Positions 1-51,073 are shown, numbered from the stretch's first letter. The stretch is DNA of 64,000 nt from Chloroflexota bacterium (GCA_023475345.1 JAMCWD010000070.1:360-64359), one strand, 5' to 3'. Numbers and translations are program-made. Notes: generated from the letters alone by a model not told the origin.

Positions 1-59
1 AGATCGAGCGCTCCTCTGGTTTCTGCAGGCAACCCCTCCTCTCGATCTCCTGTTACTGA

Positions 60-247
60 AAAAAACTGAAACATCCGGGGCGTGGACGTCGGGGTTTTTG
101 CAGTTTATCGATTCGGATTTTAAATCACACTACAAACCCGCTACCACCGGGCCGAAGCCCTTATGGTCATCCGTCCTTCAACACTCACTGCCTCCGGCTC
201 CTCGGAACACTCCCCCATTTAGCGGGAGTATCAATCCAGTCCGGGAT
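60..247 (-). ncRNA. candidate structured non-coding transcript directly downstream of cas2 (possible tracrRNA or CRISPR-leader transcript)
   Basis: There is no credible ORF here, and the segment lies just 3' of a sigma70-like promoter on the cas strand. The minus-strand RNA can pair 220-226 with 137-143. That stem encloses a GGGC-UUCG-GCCC hairpin (149-160), extended by 143-146 pairing with 164-167. A U7 run corresponds to 59-65. Confidence 0.3.
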
Positions 248-253
248 ATAAAA

Positions 254-283
254 ATTATACCAGACCTTGACTTGTTATTGCAA
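254..283 (-). promoter_or_regulatory. sigma70-like promoter TTGCAA-N18-TATAAT firing away from cas2 toward the window edge
   Basis: On the minus strand the -35 TTGCAA is at 283-278 and the perfect -10 TATAAT is at 259-254, with an 18-nt spacer. It begins 19 nt after the cas2 stop. Confidence 0.4.
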
Positions 284-301: not shown

Positions 302-589
302 TTAAATAATTATCGTATTGTCTTTTTTCAGATTAAGCGGAGTTCCTATTGCTGTAATTTTCTCCGAACAATCGGCGCATAATTTTATAAATATAACCTG
401 GTCTTCTTCATCTTCAATTATCTCTTCAATTCTTTCTTTCAGGATTATCATTTTCTGCCGGGTAATCCTGCCGAAAAAAACAGACAGTTGAATATGCCGA
501 GCAAATCCCAGCAAAGTTTTGAAAACGCGGTTAAGTCGTTTGGGATCTTTTATATCATAAGTAATAAAATATGATTCAGCCTCAGCCAT
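302..589 (-). CDS. cas2: CRISPR-associated endoribonuclease Cas2
   Basis: The ORF is 95 aa, a typical Cas2 size. The N-terminus YFITYDIKDPKRLNRVFKTLLGFARHIQLSVFFG matches the Cas2 beta1-alpha1-beta2 pattern with the conserved Asp. It starts 3 nt after the cas4-cas1 stop. Confidence 0.85.
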   Translation of the reverse strand: MAEAESYFITYDIKDPKRLNRVFKTLLGFARHIQLSVFFGRITRQKMIILKERIEEIIEDEEDQVIFIKLCADCSEKITAIGTPLNLKKDNTIII

Positions 590-592
590 AAT

Positions 593-2290
593 TCACCTTA
601 CAACAAATCCTTTATACTCAGGCAGATCTCCTCTCAAATATGCCGCTAAAAAACGGCTTTGGACTTCAAACATTCTGGAATATGACATCTGATAGCCGAA
701 TATATGATGAGTAATCATCGTGTTTTTCCTGTTTTCATAAGCCGAGAAAAAATTTTTCCTCCCCCGGGAATTCAAAACGCATGAATCTTTCCAGATAATA
801 AAATCATTTATATCTATCATCCTGTTATTTATCATGGTCAGAACCACCGAATCAACAACGATCGACCTGAATTCTTCCATCAGGTCAAGGGCGAGAGAGG
901 GGCGGCCATTCTTGATGCCGTGATAGAATCCCATATATGGATCAAGTCCAACAGTCATCAATGCCGAGAAAAAATCCCTGCACAGCATTGTATATCCGAG
1001 CGACAGCATGGCATTTACGGGGTCTCTCGGCGGACGGCGGTTTCTCCCGTTCCAATGAAATTCTCCTCCCGGAACCTGGTTTTTGAAAAGAATCCCATAA
1101 TTGGAAAAATAAGTTCTTGCTGCATTGCCTTCAATGCCGAGAATAGTTTCAAGAGATCCTGCATCTTCCAGAGATTTTAAGGCATCTGCCAGGACTTTTA
1201 CAGCAAGGTTTTCGCCAGGCTCCGGCATAGACCGAAACCCTCTCATGAGGAATGTCCTGGAATTCTGAACTTTAGCATTTATAACTTCTTTTGCAAGTTT
1301 CAAGCGTATTTCGGGATTTTGAAAATAATTGAATTGCTGAAAACGAAGGGTGATATTTTTTTGAGGAGCAGGCATCAGAACAGCCTGGAACTTGCCGTGA
1401 GAGGAAAGAAAAGTCAAATTAATTCCCATATTTATAAGAGTATTCTGGGCCTGAGTAGTTATATTGACATTGCCGAATAAAACAACCTCTCTTACCGTCT
1501 GTAACGGAATTCTTTCTTTTTCGCCGTCCTTCTTGAAAATTTCAAGGTATTCCCCCTTTTTTATAATTGATGCGCCCTGATCCTGGACATAAAGAATTCC
1601 GCTGTCATAAGACTGCGGAATAACTCGATCGATCTTTTTTTCTTCGTCATAGTTACCTGTCTGTAATACGCGGATTTCTTCGGGCTGGCAAATAGCTACA
1701 AGAGAACAGGGCGGGCAGCGGTTTGACAATTCGGGATCAAGAGGAGGCGGGATCTTTCCGCTCATAACAAGCGCTTTTGCCTGTTCAATGTATTCTTTTG
1801 TTTTCCCGCGCAATTCCCGGTTAATTGATATCGACACCCTCTGATTTGAGCCGTAAAAATAAAGATAACCACACTCTATTTTTTTCTCGTATTTTTCTTC
1901 CAGCATAAGAGCCTGGGCGCATAATTGGACTGCGTCATTGTCCCAGATAATCGGCTCTCCGTCCGAATTGAGCTTGAGTTTTGACCGCTTATATTCTACC
2001 GGGTATATATCTCCGTTTTTTTCTTCGAGGAGATCCAGCCGTCCTGTTATGCTATATTCTTCTGAAGAAATCGTAACACTCCGGGTATGAATTGTATCGC
2101 GTTCTTTTCTCTGTTTCCCCGCTAATTCAGGAGCGTCGAGTCTTTTATGCTTACTCCTGCCGTCCTCTACAAATTCATTATATTCCATTACCCCCTCGAT
2201 GTGTTCAAAATAAAACCGCCTGGGACAATATATGAAGGCATTCAGCATTGAAAGGGGGATGGGATCGCTTGCGAATGAATCCATCTTCAA
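593..2290 (-). CDS. cas4-cas1: Cas4-Cas1 fusion protein (RecB-like Fe-S nuclease domain plus Cas1 integrase domain)
   Basis: The N-terminal half has Cas4 features: Cys22 in FIYCPRRFYFEH, DLLEEK...PVEYKRSK (D-E-K), and the C-terminal cysteine cluster CPPCSLVAIC. The C-terminal half has Cas1 motifs: GIEGNAARTYF, NAMLSLGYTML and GFYHG...SLALDLMEEFR. Its start overlaps the effector stop (2287-2290). Confidence 0.9.
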   Translation of the reverse strand: MKMDSFASDPIPLSMLNAFIYCPRRFYFEHIEGVMEYNEFVEDGRSKHKRLDAPELAGKQRKERDTIHTRSVTISSEEYSITGRLDLLEEKNGDIYPVEYKRSKLKLNSDGEPIIWDNDAVQLCAQALMLEEKYEKKIECGYLYFYGSNQRVSISINRELRGKTKEYIEQAKALVMSGKIPPPLDPELSNRCPPCSLVAICQPEEIRVLQTGNYDEEKKIDRVIPQSYDSGILYVQDQGASIIKKGEYLEIFKKDGEKERIPLQTVREVVLFGNVNITTQAQNTLINMGINLTFLSSHGKFQAVLMPAPQKNITLRFQQFNYFQNPEIRLKLAKEVINAKVQNSRTFLMRGFRSMPEPGENLAVKVLADALKSLEDAGSLETILGIEGNAARTYFSNYGILFKNQVPGGEFHWNGRNRRPPRDPVNAMLSLGYTMLCRDFFSALMTVGLDPYMGFYHGIKNGRPSLALDLMEEFRSIVVDSVVLTMINNRMIDINDFIIWKDSCVLNSRGRKNFFSAYENRKNTMITHHIFGYQMSYSRMFEVQSRFLAAYLRGDLPEYKGFVVR

Positions 2291-4422
2291 CGTTTCTTCA
2301 TAAAATTTGGTGACATAAGGCTGTCTAATTCGTCAGGCTGAAGAACGATTTCATCCTCTAGTTGATTCGGGATCAGATTCTCCAGGCGATTGCGGATTCG
2401 TTCTTCAATATCGCTAAACTTTACTTCGTTATTCCTGTGTCTGTAAATGCCTTTACCTATTTTTTCCGGGCGGACAAAATTGCCGTTAAATATTTTATGC
2501 AGGTTAATCGAAGCGTTGTAATCGGCATTTACCTCAAGGAGGCAGTTTTCTTCCGGGCATGCGAAGAGCTTCCCGACGGTCTCAAACCTTTTCTCAACCT
2601 GCCCGGTTTTTTTATCTTTACAAACAGAATATCTTCTTCCAAGAGAGCCGCAGCGTGAGCATACCCATGAAGAATGGTGAGGGCTTACCGTAAAAACTTT
2701 TATTCCCGCTTCCTTTCCCAGCATCTTTACCCATTCGGTAAGGTTTCTTCTGTTCCACTCCATCAAAGCCCGGTTTATTCCCTTTTGCTTTTCGGCATCG
2801 GGTATCAAGCCTGCCATCCGTTCAAGAATAATAACATCGGCATTGTGCTTAACTGCAAAGTTTACTATTTCTCTTGCGCCTTTTTTGAACCTGTCTTCTC
2901 CCATGTCTGTAATATGATCCTGAAGAGAAATAAACGATCGTTCTCCCTTTGCGGCTTGTCCTCTTTCAGAGCGGAGTTTGCCGATTTCTTTCTTGTGTTT
3001 TTTTATGTGTCGCAGTCCGACTTCATCAAGGCTGATGAAATTTACAGCAACGGGCTTGTCAGGTAGTTTTCCGTTATGCATTTGCATAATTGTAGCAACC
3101 CCCAGGTTGCGTATCCCAAGATCAACGGCACAAGTTATAAGATCAGATGGAAACTTATATTTCCCTTTTTGGGTTTTTTCATCCGATTCCACCCATTTAA
3201 TTTCTTTAGCCCTCGGAGTCAGTTCTTTGTTCTTAATATTGCATGTGAAAACAAGGTATGGAGTCCCGGTCGGCTTTGCCGGACGAAAGATCAATTTTAC
3301 TCCCTTAATATCTACTTCACGATCTATTTGAAGATTCTTATCGAAAAATGAATAGAAAGTTTTCTCTTTTTCGGTTTTTTTATGCGTGGTATGGATTCTT
3401 CTGAATTTCTTCAGCCCTTTTAATCTTTTATCCGGTTTAAAGCGAAATACAGTATAACCTTTAGGGCTCCTTTCTTCTTCTTTATCCGATGTAATGACCT
3501 TGAGTTGAATTTCGCACTTGTCGGTATCAAGGTTTTTATATGTGCTGTCTTTCTTGAAAGAAAACCATGCGGGATGCTTCTCAGGGGATGGCAGAGTGAA
3601 TGTCGGGCGGTGGCGAAAACCATCGGGATTTTTTCTTATTGCTCTTCTTCTGACAAATTCTATTTCATACTTAGAATGAACCCTGTCAAGGGCTTCCAGT
3701 TCCGGGTTGGCCTTGAAAAATTCTTCCCCCTCCATTTTCATCTTTTTACTTCTATATGCCCTTTTGATTCTTTGCTGACCCTCTGCAGGAATTGGGTTTA
3801 CGACCGCCTCTTCTCCTCTCCATGCCGCAAGTTCAGGATGCGATTTTAAGAAATCCAGATATTTGTGCCAGCGCATTCTTCTTTTTGTAAAACCTGTCCC
3901 GACTTCTTTTTCAAATTCTTCGAGTATCGGACGTGCTCTCATGTAGTTCGGGTTGCTCTCTTCAAATTTAAGTTTTTCTTTGGCCCACTCTTCATGTTCT
4001 TTTTCCCATAGTTTCTTTAGTTCTTCATGCCCGCTGATCAACTGAAAAGACATTTCAAAAAGTTTTCTTCTGAATTCGCTGGAAAAGCCGGGCAATTCCT
4101 CAAAACGGTCAAAAAGAATTTTCTTCTTTTTTGTCAATTTTTTTGCAAGTTTCGCCCAATCTTCATCTTTACCCGATTTAAATTTTAATGAAGTAACCGC
4201 TTCCATTTTAGCTATTGAATTTTGACTGCCGCCGATAGATTCAAAAATAATTTTATAAGCCTGCCCGCTCTCCTTATCATCTCCGGCTTCTCCCCTTTTC
4301 ATCTTAAACATCTGCTGAATTACAAAAGGAAGATTCTTATTGAAAATTTTATGAGTTCTCCAGAGATGAGCCTTTTCTTCATTGGTACAAATAACTTTGG
4401 CTTCCCATGCCTTGGTGGCCAT
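2287..4422 (-). CDS. cas12: compact type V CRISPR effector (Cas12-like, RuvC plus zinc ribbon), 711 aa, subtype unassigned
   Basis: The split RuvC triad is D434 in CAVDLGIRN (codon 3121-3123), E534 in VIILERM (2821-2823) and D634 in EVNADYNASINL (2521-2523). A zinc ribbon (C588-x2-C591, C622-x4-C627) lies between RuvC-II and RuvC-III. RPTFTLPSPEKHPAWFSF resembles the Cas12b motif ATFTLPDATAHPIWTRF as I recall it. The gene is operonic with cas4-cas1 and cas2. Confidence 0.8.
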   Translation of the reverse strand: MATKAWEAKVICTNEEKAHLWRTHKIFNKNLPFVIQQMFKMKRGEAGDDKESGQAYKIIFESIGGSQNSIAKMEAVTSLKFKSGKDEDWAKLAKKLTKKKKILFDRFEELPGFSSEFRRKLFEMSFQLISGHEELKKLWEKEHEEWAKEKLKFEESNPNYMRARPILEEFEKEVGTGFTKRRMRWHKYLDFLKSHPELAAWRGEEAVVNPIPAEGQQRIKRAYRSKKMKMEGEEFFKANPELEALDRVHSKYEIEFVRRRAIRKNPDGFRHRPTFTLPSPEKHPAWFSFKKDSTYKNLDTDKCEIQLKVITSDKEEERSPKGYTVFRFKPDKRLKGLKKFRRIHTTHKKTEKEKTFYSFFDKNLQIDREVDIKGVKLIFRPAKPTGTPYLVFTCNIKNKELTPRAKEIKWVESDEKTQKGKYKFPSDLITCAVDLGIRNLGVATIMQMHNGKLPDKPVAVNFISLDEVGLRHIKKHKKEIGKLRSERGQAAKGERSFISLQDHITDMGEDRFKKGAREIVNFAVKHNADVIILERMAGLIPDAEKQKGINRALMEWNRRNLTEWVKMLGKEAGIKVFTVSPHHSSWVCSRCGSLGRRYSVCKDKKTGQVEKRFETVGKLFACPEENCLLEVNADYNASINLHKIFNGNFVRPEKIGKGIYRHRNNEVKFSDIEERIRNRLENLIPNQLEDEIVLQPDELDSLMSPNFMKKR

Positions 4423-7465: not shown

Positions 7466-7962
7466 ACAATACTTTGAAAATTGTCAAAGGCATTATACCA
7501 CAGGTATCGGGAATCGTTCAATAGAAAATTCAAAATTCCTTCCCCGGGCTGTGCTGATGCTTATCCGGGTTCCTATGTAAATATTTTTTACCTGTAATAT
7601 CGCTTTGCTTTTTTGGATAATGCAGTTACCAGAGAAGGATTAATATTATTTTATAGAAATATTCATAAAGCGGGTTTGAGGGAAAAGTTATTATTATGAA
7701 CTCAAAAAACAAATTCCCCGGTTGTATCCAGATCGGAAGAAGCCTGTATTTGTTAAGGAGGAGGCACAGTTAACAGGGGACGGGCTCTCGTAACGCCGGC
7801 TTATGGGAATCCTGTAAGATCCGCTGCGTGTCCTTAAAGACGATGTGATTGACGCCTGCCCCCGTCAGGATTCTCATCCGCTCTTCATTAAATAGCCGGC
7901 GGCATGGGGGATCTTTGACAGAGAGACCGGCATCCCTGATGTGAGGAGATAAGTGGAGTAAT

Positions 7963-9522
7963 ATGAAAAAACTTGAACAACTCGAAGAAGACCTCCACAA
8001 AGCATCTTTATATAACCGGAGCCTTATCGAGGCAAGCGTTGACCCCTTTGTTACCATAAGCCATGAAGGCAAAATCATGGATGTTAATAAGGCTACGGAA
8101 GAGGCAACAGGCATTTCCCGCGAGCAGTTGATAGGCACGGACTTTTGTGATTACTTCACCGAGCCTGATAAGGCAAGAGAAGGATATAAAAAAGTATTGT
8201 CTGAGGGCATAGTCAGGAACTATCCTCTTACTATCAGGCATATAAGCGGGAAAACCACCCCCGTCCTGTACAACGCCACGATTTACACAAACGAGGTGGG
8301 GGAAGTGGAAGGTGTATTTGCCGTGGCCCGTGATATATCCGCGCGGAAGAAGGCGGAAGAAGACCTTCGCAAAGCATCTTTATATAACCGGAGCCTTATC
8401 GAGGCAAGCGTTGACCCTCTTGTTACCATAAGCCGGGAAGGTAAAATCATGGATGTTAATAATGCTACGGAAGAAGTAACCGGCATTTCCCGCGAGCAGT
8501 TGGTCGGCACGGATTTTTGTGATTACTTCACCGAGCCTGATAAAGCAAGAGAAGGATACAAAACAGTATTGTCTGAGGGCATAGTCAGGGACTACCCTCT
8601 TACTGTCAGGCATATAAGCGGGAAGACCACCCCCGTCCTGTACAACGCCACGGTTTACAGGAACGAGGCGGGAGAAGTGGGGGGAGTGCTCGCCGCAGCC
8701 CGCGACATTGCGGATGTCAAAGAAATCAAACAAAAGCTGCATAAAGCTCACCTGGAACAGGAAAGGCTTACGTCGGAGCTTAATATCGCCAAGCAAATTC
8801 AGTTATCCGTCATTCCCCAGAAGTTTCCGAAAATACCCGGGGCGGAAATTTTTGCCAGGACTCTTCCCGCCCGGGTGGTAGGAGGAGATTTTTACGATTT
8901 CTTATTTGTTGATCCCGGCCTTCTTTGTTTTGCAATCGGAGATGCAAGCGGCAAGGGAGTGCCTGCGGCGTTGTTCATGTCTTTAAGCCAGGCTTTTTTG
9001 AAGGCTACTGCGATACGAGGCTATGAGCCCGGGGAATGCCTGACTTATGTCAACGAATTGCTTGACAGGGATATTCACCTGGATATGTATATCACGCTTT
9101 TTTACGGGATACTGGATCCTCAAACCGGGGAATTGAAATACAGTAATGCAGGCCACGATTCACCTTTTATAATAGATGAAAAAGGGCGCCCGGAACATCT
9201 CCCGATAACGGGGGAGATTCCCTTGGGCATTGACAAAAACGCTCGTTATACCACGTGCATGCGTCAGCTTGAGAATGGAATTTTTCTTTATTCCGACGGG
9301 GTAACGGATGCGATTGATAAAAACGGCAACCGGTTTACAGGGCAAAGACTCCTTAAGCTCCTTAAGAAGATGGAGCCTTTTTCCCCGGAAAGTGCCGTTA
9401 ATCATGTACTGTGTAAAGTAGAAGAATACACTTCCGGTGTTCACCAGGTCGATGATATCACGCTTTTAGCCGTCAAATACCTGGGCAACGGACCTGGCAT
9501 ACAGAAAACGAAAGACAATTGA
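7963..9522 (+). CDS. PAS-PAS-PP2C (SpoIIE/RsbU-type) serine phosphatase
   Basis: Two PAS modules are followed by a PP2C-like domain (GGDFYDF, GDASGKGVPAALFMS, SDGVTDA, DDITLLAV). Confidence 0.8.
   Translation: MKKLEQLEEDLHKASLYNRSLIEASVDPFVTISHEGKIMDVNKATEEATGISREQLIGTDFCDYFTEPDKAREGYKKVLSEGIVRNYPLTIRHISGKTTPVLYNATIYTNEVGEVEGVFAVARDISARKKAEEDLRKASLYNRSLIEASVDPLVTISREGKIMDVNNATEEVTGISREQLVGTDFCDYFTEPDKAREGYKTVLSEGIVRDYPLTVRHISGKTTPVLYNATVYRNEAGEVGGVLAAARDIADVKEIKQKLHKAHLEQERLTSELNIAKQIQLSVIPQKFPKIPGAEIFARTLPARVVGGDFYDFLFVDPGLLCFAIGDASGKGVPAALFMSLSQAFLKATAIRGYEPGECLTYVNELLDRDIHLDMYITLFYGILDPQTGELKYSNAGHDSPFIIDEKGRPEHLPITGEIPLGIDKNARYTTCMRQLENGIFLYSDGVTDAIDKNGNRFTGQRLLKLLKKMEPFSPESAVNHVLCKVEEYTSGVHQVDDITLLAVKYLGNGPGIQKTKDN
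7984..8727 (+). repeat. tandem duplication of a 372-bp unit (one PAS module) inside the phosphatase gene
   Basis: GAAGAAGACCT(C/T)C(A/G)CAAAGCATCTTTATATAACCGGAGCCTTATCGAGGCAAGCGTTGACCC recurs at 7984 and 8356. The encoded 124-aa units are nearly identical. Confidence 0.9.
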
Positions 9523-9722: not shown

Positions 9723-11885
9723 ATGCCGAAAGACCCGGTCTGCGGAATGGATGTTGATGAAAAAAACGCCGTCAAGCTGGAGAAGGACGGCGAGGTTTAT
9801 TATTTTTGCAGTGATGCCTGCAAGAATAAATTCATGGCGCGTGGGAAGATGAAAATGGGCGGCATGGAGCACGAAGCGGATCAGATGGACGGAGGCCATG
9901 CAGGGCACGGGCACCATGACCATCACGCAGGCATGGTAGCCGATTTCAGGAAACGCTTCTGGATCTCGCTTGCTCTTACCGTCCCGATCCTCGCTCTTTC
10001 CCCAATGATACAACAATTCCTCGGGCTGGGAGAATCGCTCAGGTTCGCTGGTGATTCATACCTGCTTTTCAGTTTTTCTTCGATAGTGTTTTTCTACGGC
10101 GGCTTCCCTTTTCTCAAGGGTTTCTTCGACGAGATGAAAAAGGAACAGCCCGGCATGATGACCCTCATAGCGGTAGCCGTTACGATAGCTTACGCGTATA
10201 GCTCCGCCGTGGTGTTCGGGCTTGCGGGCAAGATATTTTTCTGGGAACTGGCGACATTAATCGATATCATGCTCCTGGGCCACTGGATAGAAATGAAATC
10301 CGTGATGGGCGCATCGAAAGCCCTTGAAGAGCTGGCAAGACTCATGCCTTTCGAAGCACATAAAATAATGCCCGGCGGGAGCGTTAAAGACGTGCCGTTA
10401 GATGAACTGAACGTCGATGACAGGATTATTATAAAGCCCGGTGAGAAGATCCCCGCCGACGGCGAGGTGGTAGAAGGCGAAAGCTCTGTCAACGAATCCA
10501 TGCTTACCGGCGAATCCGGACCTGTGCCCAAAAAGCCGGGTGAGGGAGTAATCGGGGGAGCTATCAACGGGGAAGGCTCTTTGACCGTGGAGGTAAAGAG
10601 AACCGGAAAAGATTCATTTCTATCACAGGTCATCGACCTTGTCAGGCAGGCCCAGGAAAGTAAGTCGAAGACACAGGATCTTGCAAACCGGGCCGCGTTG
10701 TGGCTGACCGTCATAGCACTTGCGTGCGGGGCGATAACCCTTGTTGTATGGCTCTGGGTGATGGGGAAGGATTTTGCTTTCTCTCTCGAGAGGACCGTAA
10801 CGGTCATGGTAATTACATGCCCCCATGCCCTGGGCCTTGCCATCCCGCTGGTGGTGGCGGTTTCGACGGCGCTTGCCGCCGGGAGCGGCCTTATCATCAG
10901 GAACAGGGCGGCTTTTGAAAACGCAAGGAACATCCAGGCCATAATATTCGATAAGACGGGGACGCTGACGGAAGGCAAATTCGGTGTAACCGACACGATT
11001 GCTTTTTCAGACGATACATCCGAAAATGATCTCTTGAAATATGCCGCATCGGTAGAAGCTCGCTCCGAACACCCCATTGCAAAGGGGATTGTAGAATCAG
11101 TCAAAGACTCCTTTCCGGTTGAAGAATTCAGGGCCGTTACCGGGAAAGGCGCACAGGGCAAAGTGAACGGCATGGACGTTAAGGTGGTAAGCCCGGGTTA
11201 CCTGGGGGAAAACAACATCCCGGTAACGGATGAGAGGATCGAAAAACTTGCCTCACAGGGCAAAACCATCGTATTCGTGATGATCGATGAAAAATTAAAA
11301 GGGGCGATAGCCCTTGCCGATATCATCAGGCCGGAATCAAAAAAAGCCGTTTCAATGCTCAAGGAGATGGGCATAAAGTGTATGATGCTGACCGGGGATA
11401 ATAAAAAGGTCGCTCAATGGGTATCGGAACAGGTCGGCCTGGATGAATATTTCGCGGAAGTCCTGCCACAGGAGAAGGCGTCGAAGGTTAAAGAGGTACA
11501 GGAGAGGGGGCTGATAGTGGCCATGACGGGCGACGGCGTCAACGACGCCCCGGCCCTGGCACAGGCCGATGTGGGCGTAGCTGTCGGCGCGGGGACCGAT
11601 GTAGCGGTGGAGACCGCCGACATCATCCTTGTGCGGAGCAACCCGCTGGATGTTATATCGATCCTGGGACTGTCCCGCGCCACTTACAGGAAGATGGTTC
11701 AGAACCTGGCCTGGGCGACCGGCTATAACGCTTTCGCCATCCCGCTTGCGGCAGGCGTGCTGTTCAAGTGGGGGATACTTTTAAGCCCTGCAATGGGCGC
11801 CGTGCTGATGTCTTTAAGCACGGTCATCGTGGCGGTCAACGCTGGGCTTTTAAAAAATGAAATAATGCCGAGCAATTTTCTTTAA
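9723..11885 (+). CDS. copB: copper-translocating P1B-type ATPase, CopB-like (CPH motif), with an N-terminal YHS/TRASH domain and His-rich stretch
   Basis: Motifs present are PVCGM...FCSDACKNKF (YHS/TRASH), HAGHGHHDHHAG, TGES, CPH in VITCPHALGLAIP, DKTGTLT and GDGVNDAP. Confidence 0.9.
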   Translation: MPKDPVCGMDVDEKNAVKLEKDGEVYYFCSDACKNKFMARGKMKMGGMEHEADQMDGGHAGHGHHDHHAGMVADFRKRFWISLALTVPILALSPMIQQFLGLGESLRFAGDSYLLFSFSSIVFFYGGFPFLKGFFDEMKKEQPGMMTLIAVAVTIAYAYSSAVVFGLAGKIFFWELATLIDIMLLGHWIEMKSVMGASKALEELARLMPFEAHKIMPGGSVKDVPLDELNVDDRIIIKPGEKIPADGEVVEGESSVNESMLTGESGPVPKKPGEGVIGGAINGEGSLTVEVKRTGKDSFLSQVIDLVRQAQESKSKTQDLANRAALWLTVIALACGAITLVVWLWVMGKDFAFSLERTVTVMVITCPHALGLAIPLVVAVSTALAAGSGLIIRNRAAFENARNIQAIIFDKTGTLTEGKFGVTDTIAFSDDTSENDLLKYAASVEARSEHPIAKGIVESVKDSFPVEEFRAVTGKGAQGKVNGMDVKVVSPGYLGENNIPVTDERIEKLASQGKTIVFVMIDEKLKGAIALADIIRPESKKAVSMLKEMGIKCMMLTGDNKKVAQWVSEQVGLDEYFAEVLPQEKASKVKEVQERGLIVAMTGDGVNDAPALAQADVGVAVGAGTDVAVETADIILVRSNPLDVISILGLSRATYRKMVQNLAWATGYNAFAIPLAAGVLFKWGILLSPAMGAVLMSLSTVIVAVNAGLLKNEIMPSNFL

Positions 11886-21066: not shown

Positions 21067-21369
21067 ATGGAACCTGATGAAAAAGATGAAATTTCAGACC
21101 CCCATGATATATTCGGATCATTTAAGGACTTACAAAGGCTAAAAAAGCAATCCAATAAAAAAGAAGGAGGCGGCATTATAGAGTTTTTAGGGTTGATATT
21201 ATCATTTATTAAAGAAGGTTTTATAATTAAGATTTCTAACCCGGATGCCGAAAAAAAGAGAGAAGGAATATGGATAGATCTCAAGACCGGAAGGGAAAAA
21301 AACGATGACGCCGACAGTTCAGCGGATAGAGCTAAAAATTTAGGATTAACAGTCATTACACTTGAGTAG
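21067..21369 (+). CDS. hypothetical 100-aa ORF, probably the detached N-terminal part of the downstream DUF1963 gene
   Basis: It ends in the first copy of a 26-bp tandem duplication. Removing one copy joins it in frame to the ORF at 21450. Confidence 0.4.
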   Translation: MEPDEKDEISDPHDIFGSFKDLQRLKKQSNKKEGGGIIEFLGLILSFIKEGFIIKISNPDAEKKREGIWIDLKTGREKNDDADSSADRAKNLGLTVITLE

Positions 21370-21392
21370 GATTAACAGTCATTACACTTGAG
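21341..21392 (+). repeat. perfect 26-bp tandem duplication (TAGGATTAACAGTCATTACACTTGAG x2)
   Basis: The copies at 21341-21366 and 21367-21392 are identical. Confidence 0.95.
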
Positions 21393-37816: not shown

Positions 37817-37893
37817 GGGCGAATAGCTCAGGGGTCTAGAGCGCCTCGTTTACACCGAGGATGTCCGGGGTTCAAATCCCTGTTCGCCCACCA
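37817..37893 (+). tRNA. tRNA-Val (anticodon TAC), CCA encoded
   Basis: It has acceptor GGGCGAA/TTCGCCC, anticodon arm CCTCG-TTTACAC-CGAGG and T arm CGGGG-TTCAAAT-CCCTG. Confidence 0.9.
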
Positions 37894-38378: not shown

Positions 38379-39941
38379 TTGATGAAAAGGGTTGTTGATT
38401 TTTCATTTGTTATTAGAGGTCAAAATTACAGGTTTAAAAGTTTCGGAGAGTTCCCGGTACTGGGGCGATATTATAAAATATTGAAAGAAAAAATCCCCGC
38501 AGTTTTTCCGGGCCTTCTTGATGTTGAAACTGAAGAGGGGCTTTCTGAAGAGGGTGAGGAAGACGAAAAAAAAATAGTAAAAGAGTCGCTGCCCTGGGAC
38601 GATTACAAGCGGAAACTACTTGAAGACGCCATTAAACAGGGAAAGGAAAAACATTTTTCCCGCAAAGAAAAATTACAATATTTAGCGGATTTAGACGCGA
38701 ACAGGCTCACAGAGCGGAATCATGCAATTGAGCGGGATATTGATATGGATATGGAACTTGAAAGTGGGTTGACATATATAAGCAGTGATGAAGAGGCTCA
38801 ACGGGTGCAGAGGGCGCGTCGTATGGGGGGGCTTTCGGTTTTTGATTTTCCCGATCATTGTCTCAGAACGCTTGCTTATGAAAGTTTAGATCCCGATGAG
38901 GTTGACAATTCATTGCTTACCCCAAAAAGAGAGAAGCGACAAGATTGGACTTACTTAAGACATTATGAGTGTGATGAATTTTTTAATTTAATGGGAATAT
39001 GGCCTGAAAATGAAAACGAATACCCCACCCTAACCAGGGAAGACGATGTGGTATATGGAGCAAATCCCAAACTTCTCCGCTCCCACCCGGCAGCCCGCGA
39101 ATTTTCCCATAAAAAATTATTTGTAAAAATGCTTACATATAAGGATGATCGGATGATAGTTTGTGATTATGTTCCTGAGCCGAAAACTCTTGATGACTTG
39201 AATGATAAGAAAAGCGGGTTTTGGTATAATCCGGTCGATGATAAGCACGGCTTATTTATCGAATTTAAAGACCTGGATATTTCCTCTGATGAAAAAATAA
39301 AAGAATTTCTGGAACAATACGGAGCCTTGGGTTTTATGGAATTGGGATATAATTATATTCATATTTGCGAAAAAGGGCTGATTCATGATCCCAATACATA
39401 CGAAAAACCGCCAGAAAATGGAGAATTATGGTTTGAGCCTGTAGAATGGTTCAAGGAGCAGGTATCAACTTTTAAGAAAATCATTGAAACATATAATGAA
39501 TTACAAAAAACTAAAAACAAATTAGATAAAGGTTTTTATTCAGGCACTAAAGGGGCTGACAAAGAGAAGAAGGATGAAGTGAAATTAAAAAACCTTGATC
39601 ATAATATGACGCATGAAACAATCCGTGATATAAATTTGGGCTTGCAGGGTGCTTCCGTTGTTCTTGCAGTCGATCCAGAAACATTTACACAGGGATGGCT
39701 GTTCTTTTGCTTGTATCACGCCCTTTATATTCAACTATATGAAAATGTTTTAAGTGGAAAACTCAGAATCTGTCCCAGTTGTGGAAATCCGTTTATAAAA
39801 AAAGGCAAACAAAAATACTGTAAGCCGAACTGTGGAAATAAGTTTAGAGTAAATAAATTCAGGGACAAAAAAAGGGGAAAGAAACTTGAGGTCAAGAAGG
39901 CGAGTTCAAAGAAGAAACCTGTAAAGATGAAGGCCGTATAG
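38379..39941 (+). CDS. hypothetical 520-aa protein with a C-terminal CGNR-like zinc ribbon and basic tail (islet cargo)
   Basis: The C-terminus is RICPSCGNPFIKKGKQKYCKPNCGNKFRVNKFRDKKRGKK, that is C-x2-C...C-x3-CGN-x-FR followed by Lys/Arg-rich residues. It has an acidic N-terminal third. Confidence 0.5.
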   Translation: MMKRVVDFSFVIRGQNYRFKSFGEFPVLGRYYKILKEKIPAVFPGLLDVETEEGLSEEGEEDEKKIVKESLPWDDYKRKLLEDAIKQGKEKHFSRKEKLQYLADLDANRLTERNHAIERDIDMDMELESGLTYISSDEEAQRVQRARRMGGLSVFDFPDHCLRTLAYESLDPDEVDNSLLTPKREKRQDWTYLRHYECDEFFNLMGIWPENENEYPTLTREDDVVYGANPKLLRSHPAAREFSHKKLFVKMLTYKDDRMIVCDYVPEPKTLDDLNDKKSGFWYNPVDDKHGLFIEFKDLDISSDEKIKEFLEQYGALGFMELGYNYIHICEKGLIHDPNTYEKPPENGELWFEPVEWFKEQVSTFKKIIETYNELQKTKNKLDKGFYSGTKGADKEKKDEVKLKNLDHNMTHETIRDINLGLQGASVVLAVDPETFTQGWLFFCLYHALYIQLYENVLSGKLRICPSCGNPFIKKGKQKYCKPNCGNKFRVNKFRDKKRGKKLEVKKASSKKKPVKMKAV

Positions 39942-40031: not shown

Positions 40032-41033
40032 TTAAGATTTGCTTCTCTTTTCTAAAGAAATTTCCAATCCTTTTTCTTTGTGAGTTTTAAATTTACGATA
40101 TATAAATCCAATAAATCTAATTATTAAAGCAACTAAAAAATAACCATTGAGCCAATTGATAACTGCTGCATGGACTTCAAGGGTGTTAAAATATCCCCCG
40201 AGAATACTTGTAAAAAAGAAGCCAAGAATGTAAATCCAAACAGATGGCTTATACAGCCGTTCTTTTAAATCTTCAGATAATTTCTTTTTTGCTGATAGCC
40301 ACATAAAGGCGGTGATAATAGCCAGCAGAAGATAGAAAAAGCCTCCATAATTTGAAAGTATAAAACCAGTCCATATTGCTATAGTTTGATAAATTGAACC
40401 ATAAGGAAAAACATATATTGCAAGGTAGTATATAGGCGAAGCAATCACTTGAAGAGAAAGGGCACCCAAAATAAATAAATTAGGAGAGTATCCAAGAATT
40501 TGTTCTGGAGAGAACTTATCATAATCTTCTGATTCAATTTCGCCTGATCCGATAATCTTTGAAGTAAAAGAGAGTTTTGAAAAGAAAAACCAAAAAATAA
40601 CCATTAAAAGTAAGGTTCCAACAGAAATAAACGCTGTAAAACCCGATTTATACCAAGCGATAAATGGAGCCGCAAAAATCGCCAGGGGAGGCAGTAGAAT
40701 TGAAATCCCTAATCCCCAAATAATATCCCAAGAGGTCATTACGTAAATTGTAAAAATAATAATCCAAGCCCATAATACTCCTTGGGCAAGTAAGAACAAA
40801 GAAATCCCAAAGATTGAGAAGGGTAAAAAAACCCATTTCTGACCAAAAGTTATTCTTTCTCCGTTTATCAAATATTTTCGAAACGCTTTAAAGCTAGCTA
40901 TAGATGCAAAAATAGGTCTTGTAAAAAGTATAAAGAATTGACGAAGAAAATTAAAAATTATTGGCAACCAAATTATAGCTGCAATTACAATTACAATCCA
41001 TAAAAAAATATCTAACAATATCTTCAATTTCAC
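40032..41033 (-). CDS. polytopic membrane protein, function unknown (islet cargo)
   Basis: The ORF is 333 aa with about 8-9 hydrophobic helices and an acidic loop (GEIESEDYDKFSPEQ). Confidence 0.45.
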   Translation of the reverse strand: MKLKILLDIFLWIVIVIAAIIWLPIIFNFLRQFFILFTRPIFASIASFKAFRKYLINGERITFGQKWVFLPFSIFGISLFLLAQGVLWAWIIIFTIYVMTSWDIIWGLGISILLPPLAIFAAPFIAWYKSGFTAFISVGTLLLMVIFWFFFSKLSFTSKIIGSGEIESEDYDKFSPEQILGYSPNLFILGALSLQVIASPIYYLAIYVFPYGSIYQTIAIWTGFILSNYGGFFYLLLAIITAFMWLSAKKKLSEDLKERLYKPSVWIYILGFFFTSILGGYFNTLEVHAAVINWLNGYFLVALIIRFIGFIYRKFKTHKEKGLEISLEKRSKS

Positions 41034-41261: not shown

Positions 41262-42086
41262 CTATTTTTTCCTGACAATAATCAGCATGTGGCCGCTTGC
41301 ATCGACGACAAACTGCTCGGTGCATATTTTATAATGAACGTCCAGCCAGTTTTTCCATGCCTCCGGGTGATCCTTTGCAAATTTATTGGTCGTATCCATA
41401 TCTATATTCAGGCCTTCCAGCCCGGCTTTTTCCATGATGTCAACATTTTCCGAAAGGAATATCTGTTCAAGCTCGTTACAAGTGAAGAAATGACAATAGC
41501 CGCTCCCCCTCCACCTGTAATCTTCCCCTTTGAAAACCAGCTTCTCTAAATCCTTCCTGGACGCGGCTTCATGCGGCCAGCCCGCCGGGGTCGCCGCTAA
41601 AACGCCGTACCTGCTCATCACCGAGACAAAAATTACAGAGCCGCCTTTGCCTACCCGGATCAATTCGGAAACGGCTTTTTTTCTTTCCTGTTCGGGATGG
41701 ATATGTGACAGCGGCCCACCCAGGCACAACACCGCATCAAACGAATTGTCCTTGAAATCCGACAAATCGGTTATCGATCCCCTGACAATATTTTTAACCC
41801 TTTTGCCGAGTTTATTTTTTATTATCTGCTTTTCGGCAAAATCCAGATGCTCCTGAACAAGATCCAGTAAAACGACATCATATCCCCGTTTTGCAAGCTC
41901 CACCGTGTATCTTCCCGGGCCGCCCCCGGCATCTAAAATCAAACCTTTTTTCGGAAGATGTTTTTTAAGAAATCTCATGGTGGTATCGAATTCCAGGCGA
42001 TGATAGGGGTCACTCGTAAGCCTGTCCCATTCGCTGCTCACGCTTGCCGAATATACTTCTACCGTCAGCCTGGTTTCTTTGTTCAT
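41262..42086 (-). CDS. class I SAM-dependent methyltransferase
   Basis: Motif I is LDAGGGPGRYTVELAKRGYDVVLLDL, and the ORF is 274 aa. Confidence 0.75.
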   Translation of the reverse strand: MNKETRLTVEVYSASVSSEWDRLTSDPYHRLEFDTTMRFLKKHLPKKGLILDAGGGPGRYTVELAKRGYDVVLLDLVQEHLDFAEKQIIKNKLGKRVKNIVRGSITDLSDFKDNSFDAVLCLGGPLSHIHPEQERKKAVSELIRVGKGGSVIFVSVMSRYGVLAATPAGWPHEAASRKDLEKLVFKGEDYRWRGSGYCHFFTCNELEQIFLSENVDIMEKAGLEGLNIDMDTTNKFAKDHPEAWKNWLDVHYKICTEQFVVDASGHMLIIVRKK

Positions 42087-48379: not shown

Positions 48380-49717
48380 GTGAAAAGCAAGGAAGACAGT
48401 TGGGAACGGTTTCTCCAGGTAATGGAGGACGCTCTTGGAAAGCCCACTTTTGAAACATGCCTTAAATTTTCAATCCTTAAGAAGATTAACAACGGCAAGG
48501 CCGTGATACAGGTGTCCAGCGCTTTCGCCAAAGAAAGGCTCGAAACCAAGTATGTAGGGATAATGAAAGACACTCTTCAGAAAATCTATGACTCTCCCGG
48601 CCTTGATCTTGCACTCGAAGTTGACGAAAACCTTTTGCCTACAAGACCCGACCTCCCCGAGCAGATGGAATTTTATAAACAGGAGCAGGACGATATCCCT
48701 GAAAACAGCTTAGATCCGAGATATACCCTGGAAAGCTTCGTCGTCGGCAACAGCAACCAGTTCGCCACCGGAGCGGCTCTGGCCGTATCGAGGTCCCCGG
48801 GTAAGGTATATAACCCGCTTTTGATATTCGGAGGAGTCGGCCTCGGCAAGACTCATCTCATGCAGGCCATCGGCAACAACGTCCTGGCAAGAAAAAAGAA
48901 AGCCAGGGTTGTTTACCTGTCCACTGAGCGTTTCATAAACGAAATGATCGATGCGATGGCCAAAAAGAAAATAGAAAAATTCAGGAAGAAATACAGGACG
49001 GTCGATGTCCTGCTGGTGGATGACATCCAGTTCCTGGTGAACAAGGAGTTCACACAGGAGGAATTCTTCCACACATTTAACGAGTTATACGGGGCCAACA
49101 AGCAGATAGTCATGACCTGCGACAGGCTACCACGCGAGCTTTTTATAGATAAGAGGCTTTCGTCAAGGTTCGAATGGGGGCTCACTGCAGATATACAGGA
49201 ACCCGATCTCGAAACGCGCGAAGCCATCCTTCGAAAAAAAGCCGAGCAGAAGGGCATATCCCTGCCTAATTCGGTTATCCACTATATAGCCGAAAGGGTT
49301 CCCTCAAACGTCCGCGAACTGGAAGGAGCTCTGCTGAGAGTGCTTGCATTCGGCACTTTCAGGCGCCAGCCCGTCAATACTGAGCTTGCCCAGGAAGCTC
49401 TCAAAGGTATTATCCCGGAAGGAAGGGAGCAGATACCGACTGTAGAAAAGATCATAGAAAAAGTCGCCTCTTACTTCGATATAAAAACTGAAGAGATAAT
49501 GAGCGACAGGCGGGACAGGAGGTTCGCATACCCACGTCAGATAGCAATGTTCCTTTCGCGGGAGATAACCAACCTCTCTTATCCCGACCTTGCAAAAAAG
49601 TTCAGGAGAGACCATACGACGGTGCTTCACGCATATGAAAAGATATCCACAAATCTCCATGATATTTCTGTGCGAAACAGTGTGGATAATATTAGATCCG
49701 CGCTGAAAGTGTCTTAA
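48380..49717 (+). CDS. dnaA: chromosomal replication initiator protein DnaA
   Basis: It has Walker A GGVGLGKTHL, Walker B LLVDDIQF, sensor motifs, and the domain IV HTTV pattern (RDHTTVLHAYEKI). The start codon is GTG. Confidence 0.95.
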   Translation: MKSKEDSWERFLQVMEDALGKPTFETCLKFSILKKINNGKAVIQVSSAFAKERLETKYVGIMKDTLQKIYDSPGLDLALEVDENLLPTRPDLPEQMEFYKQEQDDIPENSLDPRYTLESFVVGNSNQFATGAALAVSRSPGKVYNPLLIFGGVGLGKTHLMQAIGNNVLARKKKARVVYLSTERFINEMIDAMAKKKIEKFRKKYRTVDVLLVDDIQFLVNKEFTQEEFFHTFNELYGANKQIVMTCDRLPRELFIDKRLSSRFEWGLTADIQEPDLETREAILRKKAEQKGISLPNSVIHYIAERVPSNVRELEGALLRVLAFGTFRRQPVNTELAQEALKGIIPEGREQIPTVEKIIEKVASYFDIKTEEIMSDRRDRRFAYPRQIAMFLSREITNLSYPDLAKKFRRDHTTVLHAYEKISTNLHDISVRNSVDNIRSALKVS

Positions 49718-49894: not shown

Positions 49895-49930
49895 GTGCTT
49901 AACTCTCTAAATAAAAAGGAGGCTTCTAAA

Positions 49931-51073
49931 ATGAGGATCATATGCGACAGAAAAAAACTGGAGGTTGCTACACACAACTGCATGAAAGCGGTGAGTATAA
50001 GGAGTCCTTTGCCTATTCTCAGTCATTTACTGTTTGACGTGGAGGACGGCAGAATAAAAATAAGCGCTACCGACCTGGAGTTGGGTATAGAGAGCTATGT
50101 TGAGACACAAGGCTCTGTAGAGGCGAAAAAAGATGAAAAAAGAAGCTTCACAGCTCCCGCTAAAACTTTTTCGGATATAATAGGCCAGCTTCCCGACGGT
50201 GAGGTAATACTGGAAGTTTCTGAAGGACAAATGAAGATAACTTCCCACAGGTCGGAATTTTCACTTGTTACTTTACCTTCCGCCGAATTTCCAATATTCC
50301 CAAGACCTGAAGGGGCATCGTCCCTGACTATAGACGCAGGAACTTTTAAAGAGATGGTAAGGCTCGTGCTTTTTTCGTGTGCATCCGCCGAGGAAAGCCG
50401 CGCCGTTCTTACAGGCGTCCTTATTTCAGTTAACGAAAACAAGCTGACAATGGTGGCTACCGATGGCCGGAGGCTTGCGCAGATTGAGCGGATCATAGAC
50501 CAGCTCTTCCCCGGTAAAGAGTCGAGAGTTGTTCCCCAGCACAGCCTTACCGAAATATCGAAACTGCTCAGAGACGACGACAAGGAAATAGAAATATCGT
50601 TCGGCGAAGGCCAGATATTCTTTTCGATCCCCAGGGTGTTCCTTTTCTCAAGAGTGCTCGAAGGCGAGTATCCAGATTACAGGACGCTTATAAGGAAAGA
50701 CTACAACACAAGGGCTATAATTGATCGTCTCATGCTGCTTGGCGCTGTGCGCCGTGTGATGATTACGGCCCAGGAGAGGATAAACCCGGGTCTTATAAAG
50801 CTGTCGTTCAAGGGAGACGGCCTTGAAATATCGTCAAATACAGCGGACCTCGGAAGGGCAAGGGAAACAATTCAAGTCGCCATCGAAGGAGAAGAATTGA
50901 ACATAGCTTTTAACGGCAAATACATGATGGAAGTTTTAAGCAACCTTGAGATAGAACAGATAAACCTGGACATGAAGGATCCTCATTCTTCCGGCGTCAT
51001 ATCGCCTGTAGGCGACGATTCGTATGTTTATATACTGATGCCCATAAGGATAAAAGACGAAGTTTACGCCTGA
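49931..51073 (+). CDS. dnaN: DNA polymerase III beta sliding clamp
   Basis: The start is chosen at MRIICDRKKLE, after an RBS AGGAGG. The three-domain clamp pattern is present, including LTMVATDGRRLA. Confidence 0.9.
   Translation: MRIICDRKKLEVATHNCMKAVSIRSPLPILSHLLFDVEDGRIKISATDLELGIESYVETQGSVEAKKDEKRSFTAPAKTFSDIIGQLPDGEVILEVSEGQMKITSHRSEFSLVTLPSAEFPIFPRPEGASSLTIDAGTFKEMVRLVLFSCASAEESRAVLTGVLISVNENKLTMVATDGRRLAQIERIIDQLFPGKESRVVPQHSLTEISKLLRDDDKEIEISFGEGQIFFSIPRVFLFSRVLEGEYPDYRTLIRKDYNTRAIIDRLMLLGAVRRVMITAQERINPGLIKLSFKGDGLEISSNTADLGRARETIQVAIEGEELNIAFNGKYMMEVLSNLEIEQINLDMKDPHSSGVISPVGDDSYVYILMPIRIKDEVYA

Follow-up and report, generated by a model that had tools for sequence, protein, structure and literature searches.

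What kind of CRISPR system is encoded at the left end of a 64,000-nucleotide (nt) stretch of the genome of a Chloroflexota bacterium (GCA_023475345.1 JAMCWD010000070.1:360-64359), and is it likely to work? Three minus-strand genes at positions 302-4422 of this stretch (the whole of which, at its full length, is called the window below) encode a type V effector of 711 amino acids (aa), a Cas4-Cas1 fusion and Cas2, and the original prediction took the combination of so small a nuclease with this adaptation module for either an unclassified type V subtype or a strongly miniaturised Cas12b. Our analysis very strongly favours a different answer—that the locus belongs to the known variant V-B2 (Cas12b2), as a new and divergent member rather than as a new subtype. 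We further consider it likely, with less assurance, that it is a complete or nearly complete V-B2 system, carried on the chromosome of an uncultured, non-planctomycete host and equipped with a trans-activating CRISPR RNA (tracrRNA) and dual-RNA-guided DNA cutting, whose array lies beyond the left edge of the window.

The operon and its Cas12b2 effector

The genes of the operon are as follows:

2287-4422, minus strand: effector gene, assigned to cas12b2 (V-B2); 711 aa, ATG start
593-2290, minus strand: cas4-cas1 fusion gene; 565 aa from the TTG at 2290, or 563 aa from the ATG at 2284
302-589, minus strand: cas2; 95 aa, matching Pfam CRISPR_Cas2 (E 4.7e-21) and TIGR01573 above its cutoff

Open reading frames (ORFs) and junction sequences agree with the gene coordinates and tight coupling originally described: the start codon of cas4-cas1 either overlaps the stop of the effector or adjoins it directly (TTG 2290-2288 against TGA 2289-2287, with a further ATG at 2284-2282), and 3 nt separate the cas4-cas1 stop from the cas2 start. 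Gene content and integrity are demonstrated, all three genes being full length and translationally coupled. The split RuvC triad that had been read from the translation (D434/E534/D634) is intact and at least 90% kept across 120 family members, and the four cysteines of the proposed zinc ribbon, C588, C591, C622 and C627, are invariant in the alignment of the same 120 proteins.

The assignment to V-B2 rests first on full-length homology. The short Cas12b/CAS-V-B profiles of PADLOC (664-720 columns) match the effector end to end, the best at E 1.3e-171 (effector aa 19-646 against profile positions 2-673 of 720) and the second at E 1.2e-148 (effector aa 1-645). A search of 5.8 billion proteins returned 155 homologues of 670-810 aa, the best of them, self excluded, at 47% identity; they are mostly unnamed or annotated as ‘transposase/TnpB’ (‘IS605 OrfB / TnpB transposase’), and many come from metagenome-assembled genomes (MAGs) of Planctomycetota. 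Identity to 119 family members is 37-49% at 85-100% coverage, and at most ~50% to any relative. When 1.84 billion cluster representatives were scanned exhaustively with HMMER, just 64 clusters reached E<=1e-30, and the window effector stood for a 50%-identity cluster of its own, which marks V-B2 as a small family and this protein as a divergent member of it. Scanning one genome per species yielded 28 loci, among them that of Planctomycetes bacterium RBG_13_46_10 scaffold_1401 (L005), which we take to be the V-B2 representative locus of the 2020 classification and whose protein is 43% identical to the effector over aa 1-645. The published description of Cas12b2 is of proteins of 700-800 aa, mostly from Planctomycetota, with a Cas1-Cas4 fusion and Cas2 in some loci (PMC10691335); at 711 aa the effector falls within this range and within that of the family. 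Within the Cas12b clade, Cas12b2 branches deepest, and Cas12b1 arose from it by gaining helical insertions (PMC10691335); the 2025 classification retains the V-B variants and adds Cas12b3 (PMC12669027).

The predicted architecture of the effector is consistent with this placement. An AlphaFold2 model built from the family alignment is confident (pLDDT 90.2, pTM 0.84). The predicted layout, in which the RuvC-I to RuvC-II gap is 100 aa, is the following:

aa ~1-260: predicted WED/REC1
aa ~270-425: predicted WED beta-barrel
D434: RuvC-I
aa 498-525: predicted REC2-like helix pair, very short
E534: RuvC-II
C588/C591/C622/C627: TNB zinc ribbon
D634: RuvC-III

Among solved Cas12 structures, the modelled fold is closest to Cas12b: the top Foldseek matches are BthCas12b (5wti) and AacCas12b (5u30), at query-normalised TM-scores (TMq) of 0.65 and 0.64, with Cas12g (0.47) and Cas12f (~0.3) further down. 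A profile search of PDB sequences also places 5wti first (E 2.6e-29), in an alignment that takes in the WED strand at the N terminus, all three RuvC motifs and the TFTLP..HP.W..F segment, which aligns with both BthCas12b and AacCas12b, as its Cas12b likeness had led the original prediction to expect. Profiles and structure model together uphold the earlier reading that placed this type V effector in the Cas12b lineage. The differences from Cas12b1, with which the locus also shares a fused Cas4-Cas1, lie in size and architecture: Cas12b1 proteins have ~1,100-1,300 aa, a larger REC1 and, separating RuvC-I from RuvC-II, a large inserted REC2 (~278 aa in AacCas12b, against the 100 aa of the window effector), and they are without the four zinc cysteines in the aligned segment. 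Cas12g (V-G; 6xmf), the second-best structural match, resembles the effector in its ~770 aa and tracrRNA dependence, and its RuvC/TNB region aligns at E 4e-18, but the C-terminal half alone aligns; Cas12g targets RNA, and V-G loci are not known to carry adaptation genes. Cas12f/Cas14 (V-F) and TnpB share the RuvC and zinc-ribbon TNB core, but leave the N-terminal 430 aa of the effector unmatched, with TMq ~0.3 and scores under the cutoffs; Cas12f, moreover, acts as a dimer of 400-550-aa subunits.

The adaptation genes fit the same family. The cas4-cas1 product contains Pfam Cas_Cas4 (E 1e-20) and Cas_Cas1 (E 2e-94) domains and is 44% identical to the fusion of one V-B2 relative, L036, and with Cas2 it forms, by Pfam and NCBIfam, the V-B-type adaptation module proposed earlier. 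The fusion also passes NF049935, the NCBIfam model for the type I-G Cas4/Cas1 fusion (645 bits, cutoff 560). We considered an origin by borrowing from a type I-G system and dropped it, because the fusions of V-B2 loci L004, L005, L007 and L036 pass the identical model equally (642-696 bits), so that its label does not separate I-G from V-B2 fusions; none of the type I-G genes cas3, cas5, cas7 and cas8 was found near the locus.

A conserved tracrRNA in related V-B2 loci

The related loci provide the context in which the left end of the window can be read. In at least 20 of them an array lies on the effector strand, 350-490 nt past the effector stop, with repeats of 36 nt and spacers of 30-39 nt; the arrays have up to 41 repeats. 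BLAST of the 193 distinct spacers recovered from these arrays against all fetched DNA gave no protospacer, and the protospacer-adjacent motif (PAM) could therefore not be inferred. Two arrays carry related spacers: in L004, those at 10205 and 10719 overlap by 26 identical nt and are two acquisitions from one protospacer region, and in L014 one spacer is duplicated, at 3914 and 3980.

Gene order varies among the relatives. The adaptation genes come first in L004, L005, L007, L011 and L012 (cas4cas1-cas2-effector-tracr-array), they follow the array in L036 (effector-tracr-array-cas4cas1-cas2), and in L023 they lie past the array on the opposite strand; other relatives are without any. The order in the window, effector-cas4cas1-cas2-tracr, sets the adaptation genes between the effector and the gap and was seen in none of the relatives compared. 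Further V-B2 loci were met with in MAGs that bear the labels Thermodesulfobacteriota, Acidobacteriota, Verrucomicrobia and Bryobacterales, an indication that V-B2 moves between phyla. In the Thermodesulfobacteriota MAG (L004, 6131-8608), cas12b2 aligns to the query as two segments that cover aa 1-85 and aa 82-681 and lie ~390 nt apart, which suggests a ~130-aa REC1 insertion or an intervening element.

The gap between effector and array in the relatives holds a -35/-10 pair followed by a conserved element of ~160 nt, recognisable by the motifs GUGGAGCAA, GCUAUAGGC, UGAGUGUCAA, CUGGCCCUACGGCC-UUCG-GGCC and GCGGCGGCAC. In essentially all these loci an anti-repeat stands on the same strand, ~190-230 nt past the effector stop, and is complementary to nt ~7-31 of the repeat. 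The RNAalifold structure of the gap RNA comprises 32 pairs, of which 19 show compensatory changes, and 94% of alignment cells are paired; this figure falls to 32-58% when the pairing partners are slid, and 0 of 500 shuffled controls reach any of five measures. A covariance model locates the element directly 3' of the effector in every relative that has sequence there. Both the existence of a family tracrRNA and its covariation are thus demonstrated in the relatives, whose loci also lend substance to the tracrRNA dependence that the original prediction had thought probable.

Besides the anti-repeat, the tracrRNA offers the repeat a second site. An internal GUGUC is complementary to the last five repeat bases, GACAC, in 16 loci, and a second class, represented by L031 and L033, combines a tracr GUGGU with the repeat end ACCAC; the same motif is visible in L034, L035 and L003. 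Two pairs between tracr and repeat have thus changed in concert across the two classes. In the AacCas12b single-guide RNA, the repeat 3' end (..GCAC) pairs with an internal tracr segment besides the main anti-repeat duplex, and the V-B2 GUGUC:GACAC pairing mirrors this feature of the Cas12b1 guide. Rfam has no family for the V-B2 gap RNA, whether in the window or in L009, and a description of a V-B2 tracrRNA family was not found in our literature search; the V-B2 tracrRNA is defined in the present analysis and stands outside the published V-B2 definition.

The left edge of the window: a candidate tracrRNA and a probable array beyond it

Between cas2 and position 1, the window presents the following features, several of which recall the gap of the relatives:

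254-283, minus strand: sigma-70-like promoter, TTGCAA-18 nt-TATAAT, with a TG-extended -10 box
56-247, minus strand: candidate tracrRNA of ~190 nt, a weak covariance-model match
~222-216, minus strand: 5' hairpin of the candidate tracrRNA, with GCUAAAUGG loop
187-177, minus strand: motif GUGAGUGUUGAA of the candidate tracrRNA, predicted to pair with the repeat 3' end
within the candidate tracrRNA: GGGC-UUCG-GCCC hairpin, enclosed by the long-range stem GGACG...CGUCC
72-56, minus strand: candidate anti-repeat GUUUCAGUUUUUUUCAG
1-48, minus strand: strong hairpin AGAUCGAG...CUCGAUCU after the candidate anti-repeat; terminator or second part of the anti-repeat

The promoter points from cas2 towards window position 1, is among the four best scorers (10/12) in a promoter scan of the locus, and has its equivalent in the -35/-10 pair immediately upstream of the relatives' tracrRNA. 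Covariance model R2 gave one match in the 64-kb window, at 221-83 on the minus strand, over the full model span and with a score of 10 bits, for which E is 0.65 in a search of 155 kb and 0.019 when the 4.7-kb locus is searched with filters off. Model R1 gave no match in the window with default filters and one at 247-83 (E 0.19) with filters off, so that a match came from the filters-off searches and the broader R2 alone. By our estimate, a random top match would fall in the ~300-nt strand-specific target with a chance of ~0.2% (300/128,000).

A three-way MAFFT alignment of this region with the gaps of L004 and L036, the two nearest ‘GACAC-class’ relatives of the window locus, was uninformative, and the regions were compared through their motifs and the order of these. 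With L004 the region shares the strings AGUGAGUGU(U/C)(G/A)AA(G/A)GACGGAUG and CGACGUC(C/A)AC..GAU, and with L036 UAAGGGCUUCGGCC and GCAAAA(A)CCCCG. The stem GGACG...CGUCC stands in place of the family stem GUGCUG...CGGCAC; GUUUCAGUUUUUUUCAG starts where the L004 anti-repeat starts, immediately past ‘..GAU’; and the hairpin at 1-48 contains CAGAGG, complementary to CCUCUG of the putative repeat, a feature found at the same position in L004 and L036. The covariance score being weak, a tracrRNA encoded at positions 56-247 is probable rather than established. A plus-strand ORF at 98-382, antisense to the candidate tracrRNA and the 3' end of cas2, has no family match and is probably spurious; it is called as a 149-aa gene at 7646-8095 of a public contig, L001.

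No CRISPR array was found in the 64-kb window by Tandem Repeats Finder, a direct-repeat search or a k-mer chain finder, in agreement with what the original prediction had reported; this absence is probably an edge effect, the tracrRNA-like region filling the last ~250 nt of the window. The sequence beyond comes from L001, a Logan contig (SRR10267473) that is identical to the window across the locus and 162 nt longer on the left. Its terminal 30 nt, GTGATCCCCCCCTCTGAAAAAACCTGAAGC, are repeat-like and include CTCTGA(A/T)AAA, which is also the core of the repeats in L004 and L036. The final 17 nt can pair with GUUUCAGUUUUUUUCAG (window 72-56) through 15 Watson-Crick pairs and a single G-U pair, a score reached by 1 of 300 shuffles. 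Short-read contigs typically break at arrays, and since Logan assemblies use k = 31, a stop ~30 nt into a 36-nt repeat is what such an assembly would be expected to give. Promoter, tracr-like RNA, hairpin and a leader-sized spacer of ~130 nt follow one another in the order and spacing of L004 and L036, in both of which an array comes next. We lean towards an array that begins ~133 nt beyond the left edge of the window. When 24 nt of the L001 end were sought as an exact pattern in the metagenome collection, no match came back, and a Cas2-based scan of the same collection returned loci of 47-48% identity only, so that the organism is absent from it.

Several observations weigh against a complete and active system. 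No array was seen, either in the window or in the contigs that overlap it. The candidate tracrRNA scores low, at 10 bits, and has diverged strongly from the family model; its minimum free energy fold is no better than that of shuffled sequence (z -1.35), so that thermodynamic stability lends no support; and a terminator-like site overlaps the candidate anti-repeat. The match between the L001 tail and GUUUCAGUUUUUUUCAG contains many A/T runs, and at another place in L001 chance alone gives a match that scores as well or better. The two public contigs that overlap the locus also end at differing points, L002 ~40 nt short of the window edge and L001 162 nt beyond it. Finally, Cas12b2 is described as experimentally uncharacterised (PMC10691335), and our literature search found no later characterisation. 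Because no V-B2 effector has been reported as tested, DNA cleavage, PAM and tracrRNA requirement are extrapolated from Cas12b1.

These points give some weight to the alternative that the operon is an orphan or in decay, its array lost or reduced to a remnant repeat and the immune system inactive, as might be the case if the module had been transferred recently or served in trans. Such a history would account for 64 kb without an array, for a tracrRNA-like region so far from its family and for just a partial repeat-like string at the contig end. It accords less well with the state of the genes, which are full length and coupled with conserved catalytic residues, and which on these grounds point to ongoing selection on the operon, or with the ordered and spaced elements shared with array-bearing L004 and L036; the abrupt end of the repeat-like string, moreover, is that expected of the assembly. 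We regard this alternative as unlikely, though a serious contender.

If the locus is instead a complete V-B2 system, it may be expected to operate as follows. Cas4-Cas1 and Cas2 would acquire and integrate spacers. The tracrRNA, encoded immediately downstream of cas2, would be transcribed separately and would pair with the 36-nt repeat of the precursor CRISPR RNA (pre-crRNA) twice, through its 3' anti-repeat with the repeat body and through its internal GUGU(C/U) with the last five bases. Host RNase III would presumably process the tracrRNA:pre-crRNA duplex, as it does in other systems with a tracrRNA (PMC12669027). Carrying the dual RNA, the 711-aa Cas12b2 would find complementary, PAM-flanked double-stranded DNA and, by analogy with Cas12b1, cut it at its single RuvC site (D434/E534/D634), possibly with the assistance of the TnpB-like zinc-ribbon TNB domain. 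We infer a functional tracrRNA from the weak RNA match in the window, and a following array from the sequence around it. The most specific form of this proposal—a complete, active V-B2 system in an arrangement not seen before (effector, adaptation genes, tracrRNA), in a non-planctomycete host, with a tracrRNA of ~190 nt clamped to the repeat at two sites—is one that we hold tentatively, as a possibility rather than an expectation.

Other identities, the host and what the locus means

That the effector should represent a type V subtype new to classification, or a Cas12b that was miniaturised secondarily, is very improbable, though the standard models explain why it was proposed. Pfam sees the TNB zinc-ribbon domain alone, and three NCBIfam models stay far under their cutoffs: Cas12f2 (NF049972), the best match, gives 75 bits against 450 over aa 433-643, guided_TnpB (NF040570) 54 bits against 100, alongside a partial match to TIGR01766, and the Cas12b equivalog (NF033949) 39 bits against 150, covering just aa 523-599. 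The low identity to any relative, the effector's position at the head of its own 50%-identity cluster and a gene order unlike that of all relatives examined could be taken in the same sense. Against this stand the end-to-end V-B profile matches (E 1e-148 to 1e-171) and the full-length alignment with 119 members, the RBG_13_46_10 protein included, of a family that is already described as V-B2, the deepest branch from which Cas12b1 was derived by insertions (PMC10691335). Since the effector matches the V-B profiles, the RBG_13_46_10 protein, the Cas12b2 description and the Cas12b fold, its match to a defined variant is full length and of high coverage, and the claim of an unclassified subtype falls with it. 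The miniaturised reading fails as well, V-B2 being described as an ancestral-like branch and not a reduced one (PMC10691335). The effector had looked unclassified because Pfam and NCBIfam leave V-B2 uncovered and public records call the family ‘transposase’; the flag of a new subtype was a false alarm.

Least credible of all is a TnpB-type transposon nuclease that happens to lie beside an unrelated type I-G adaptation module, a reading suggested by the relatives' database names, the partial guided_TnpB and TIGR01766 matches and the model named for I-G that the fusion passes, but countered by a TnpB score of 54 bits against a cutoff of 100, by a neighbourhood in which TnpA, I-G effector genes and insertion sequence ends were all not found, by the overlap of the effector 3' end with the cas4-cas1 start, by relatives that adjoin arrays of up to 41 repeats, and by V-B2 fusions that pass the ‘I-G’ model equally.

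The V-B2 assignment, then, draws on size class, full-length homology, RuvC triad and zinc ribbon, and Cas4-Cas1 with Cas2, beside which stands a candidate tracrRNA-like element with family motifs; the locus departs from the other V-B2 loci in the position of its adaptation genes between effector and candidate tracrRNA, in the strong divergence of the latter and in its host. The window is chromosomal, with dnaA (48380-49717), dnaN (49895-51073), eight tRNAs and ordinary housekeeping genes, and with a cumulative GC skew minimum near 46-48 kb; it holds the chromosomal replication-origin region, ~44 kb from the CRISPR locus. One JGI protein matches its DnaA at 83% identity and everything else at 53% at most, the named neighbours being from Armatimonadota, Bacillota and Eremiobacterota and not from Planctomycetota. 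On account of these neighbours and low identities, the host is a member of a poorly sampled lineage and not a planctomycete.

Elsewhere in the window, a 519-aa gene at 7963-9522 contains a 372-bp tandem duplication (7984-8680; 1.9 copies, 92% identity) whose translation looks like a PAS sensor domain, and a 26-bp sequence, TAGGATTAACAGTCATTACACTTGAG, is perfectly duplicated in tandem at 21341-21392 (two copies). Beside tRNA-Val (37817-37893), the segment 38000-42100 has a GC content of 38% against ~48-55% around it and a sharp GC-skew reversal, and may be a horizontally acquired island. Its ORFs at 38379-39941 (plus strand) and 40032-41033 (minus strand) gave no PADLOC match and no significant Pfam match; the former has a sub-threshold CGNR zinc-finger match (20.7 bits, cutoff 24), and an S-adenosylmethionine (SAM) methyltransferase gene at 41262-42086 weakly matches the PADLOC ‘mad2’ model.

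The Cas12b editors are in wide use, and Cas12b2 is their small relative of deepest branching; the locus adds to it a divergent member with an intact adaptation module. Its relatives reveal a V-B2 tracrRNA family with two co-evolving tracr/repeat classes, which is not in Rfam and of which the literature search found no description. Should the effector cut double-stranded DNA, it would be among the smallest tracrRNA-guided monomeric Cas12 nucleases with an adaptation module of their own, and the locus would offer a view of the transition from TnpB to Cas12b. Together, the locus and its relatives yield a tracrRNA:crRNA design—tracr core, anti-repeat and GUGUC:GACAC clamp—from which a guide RNA for a nuclease of ~700 aa can be put to the test.

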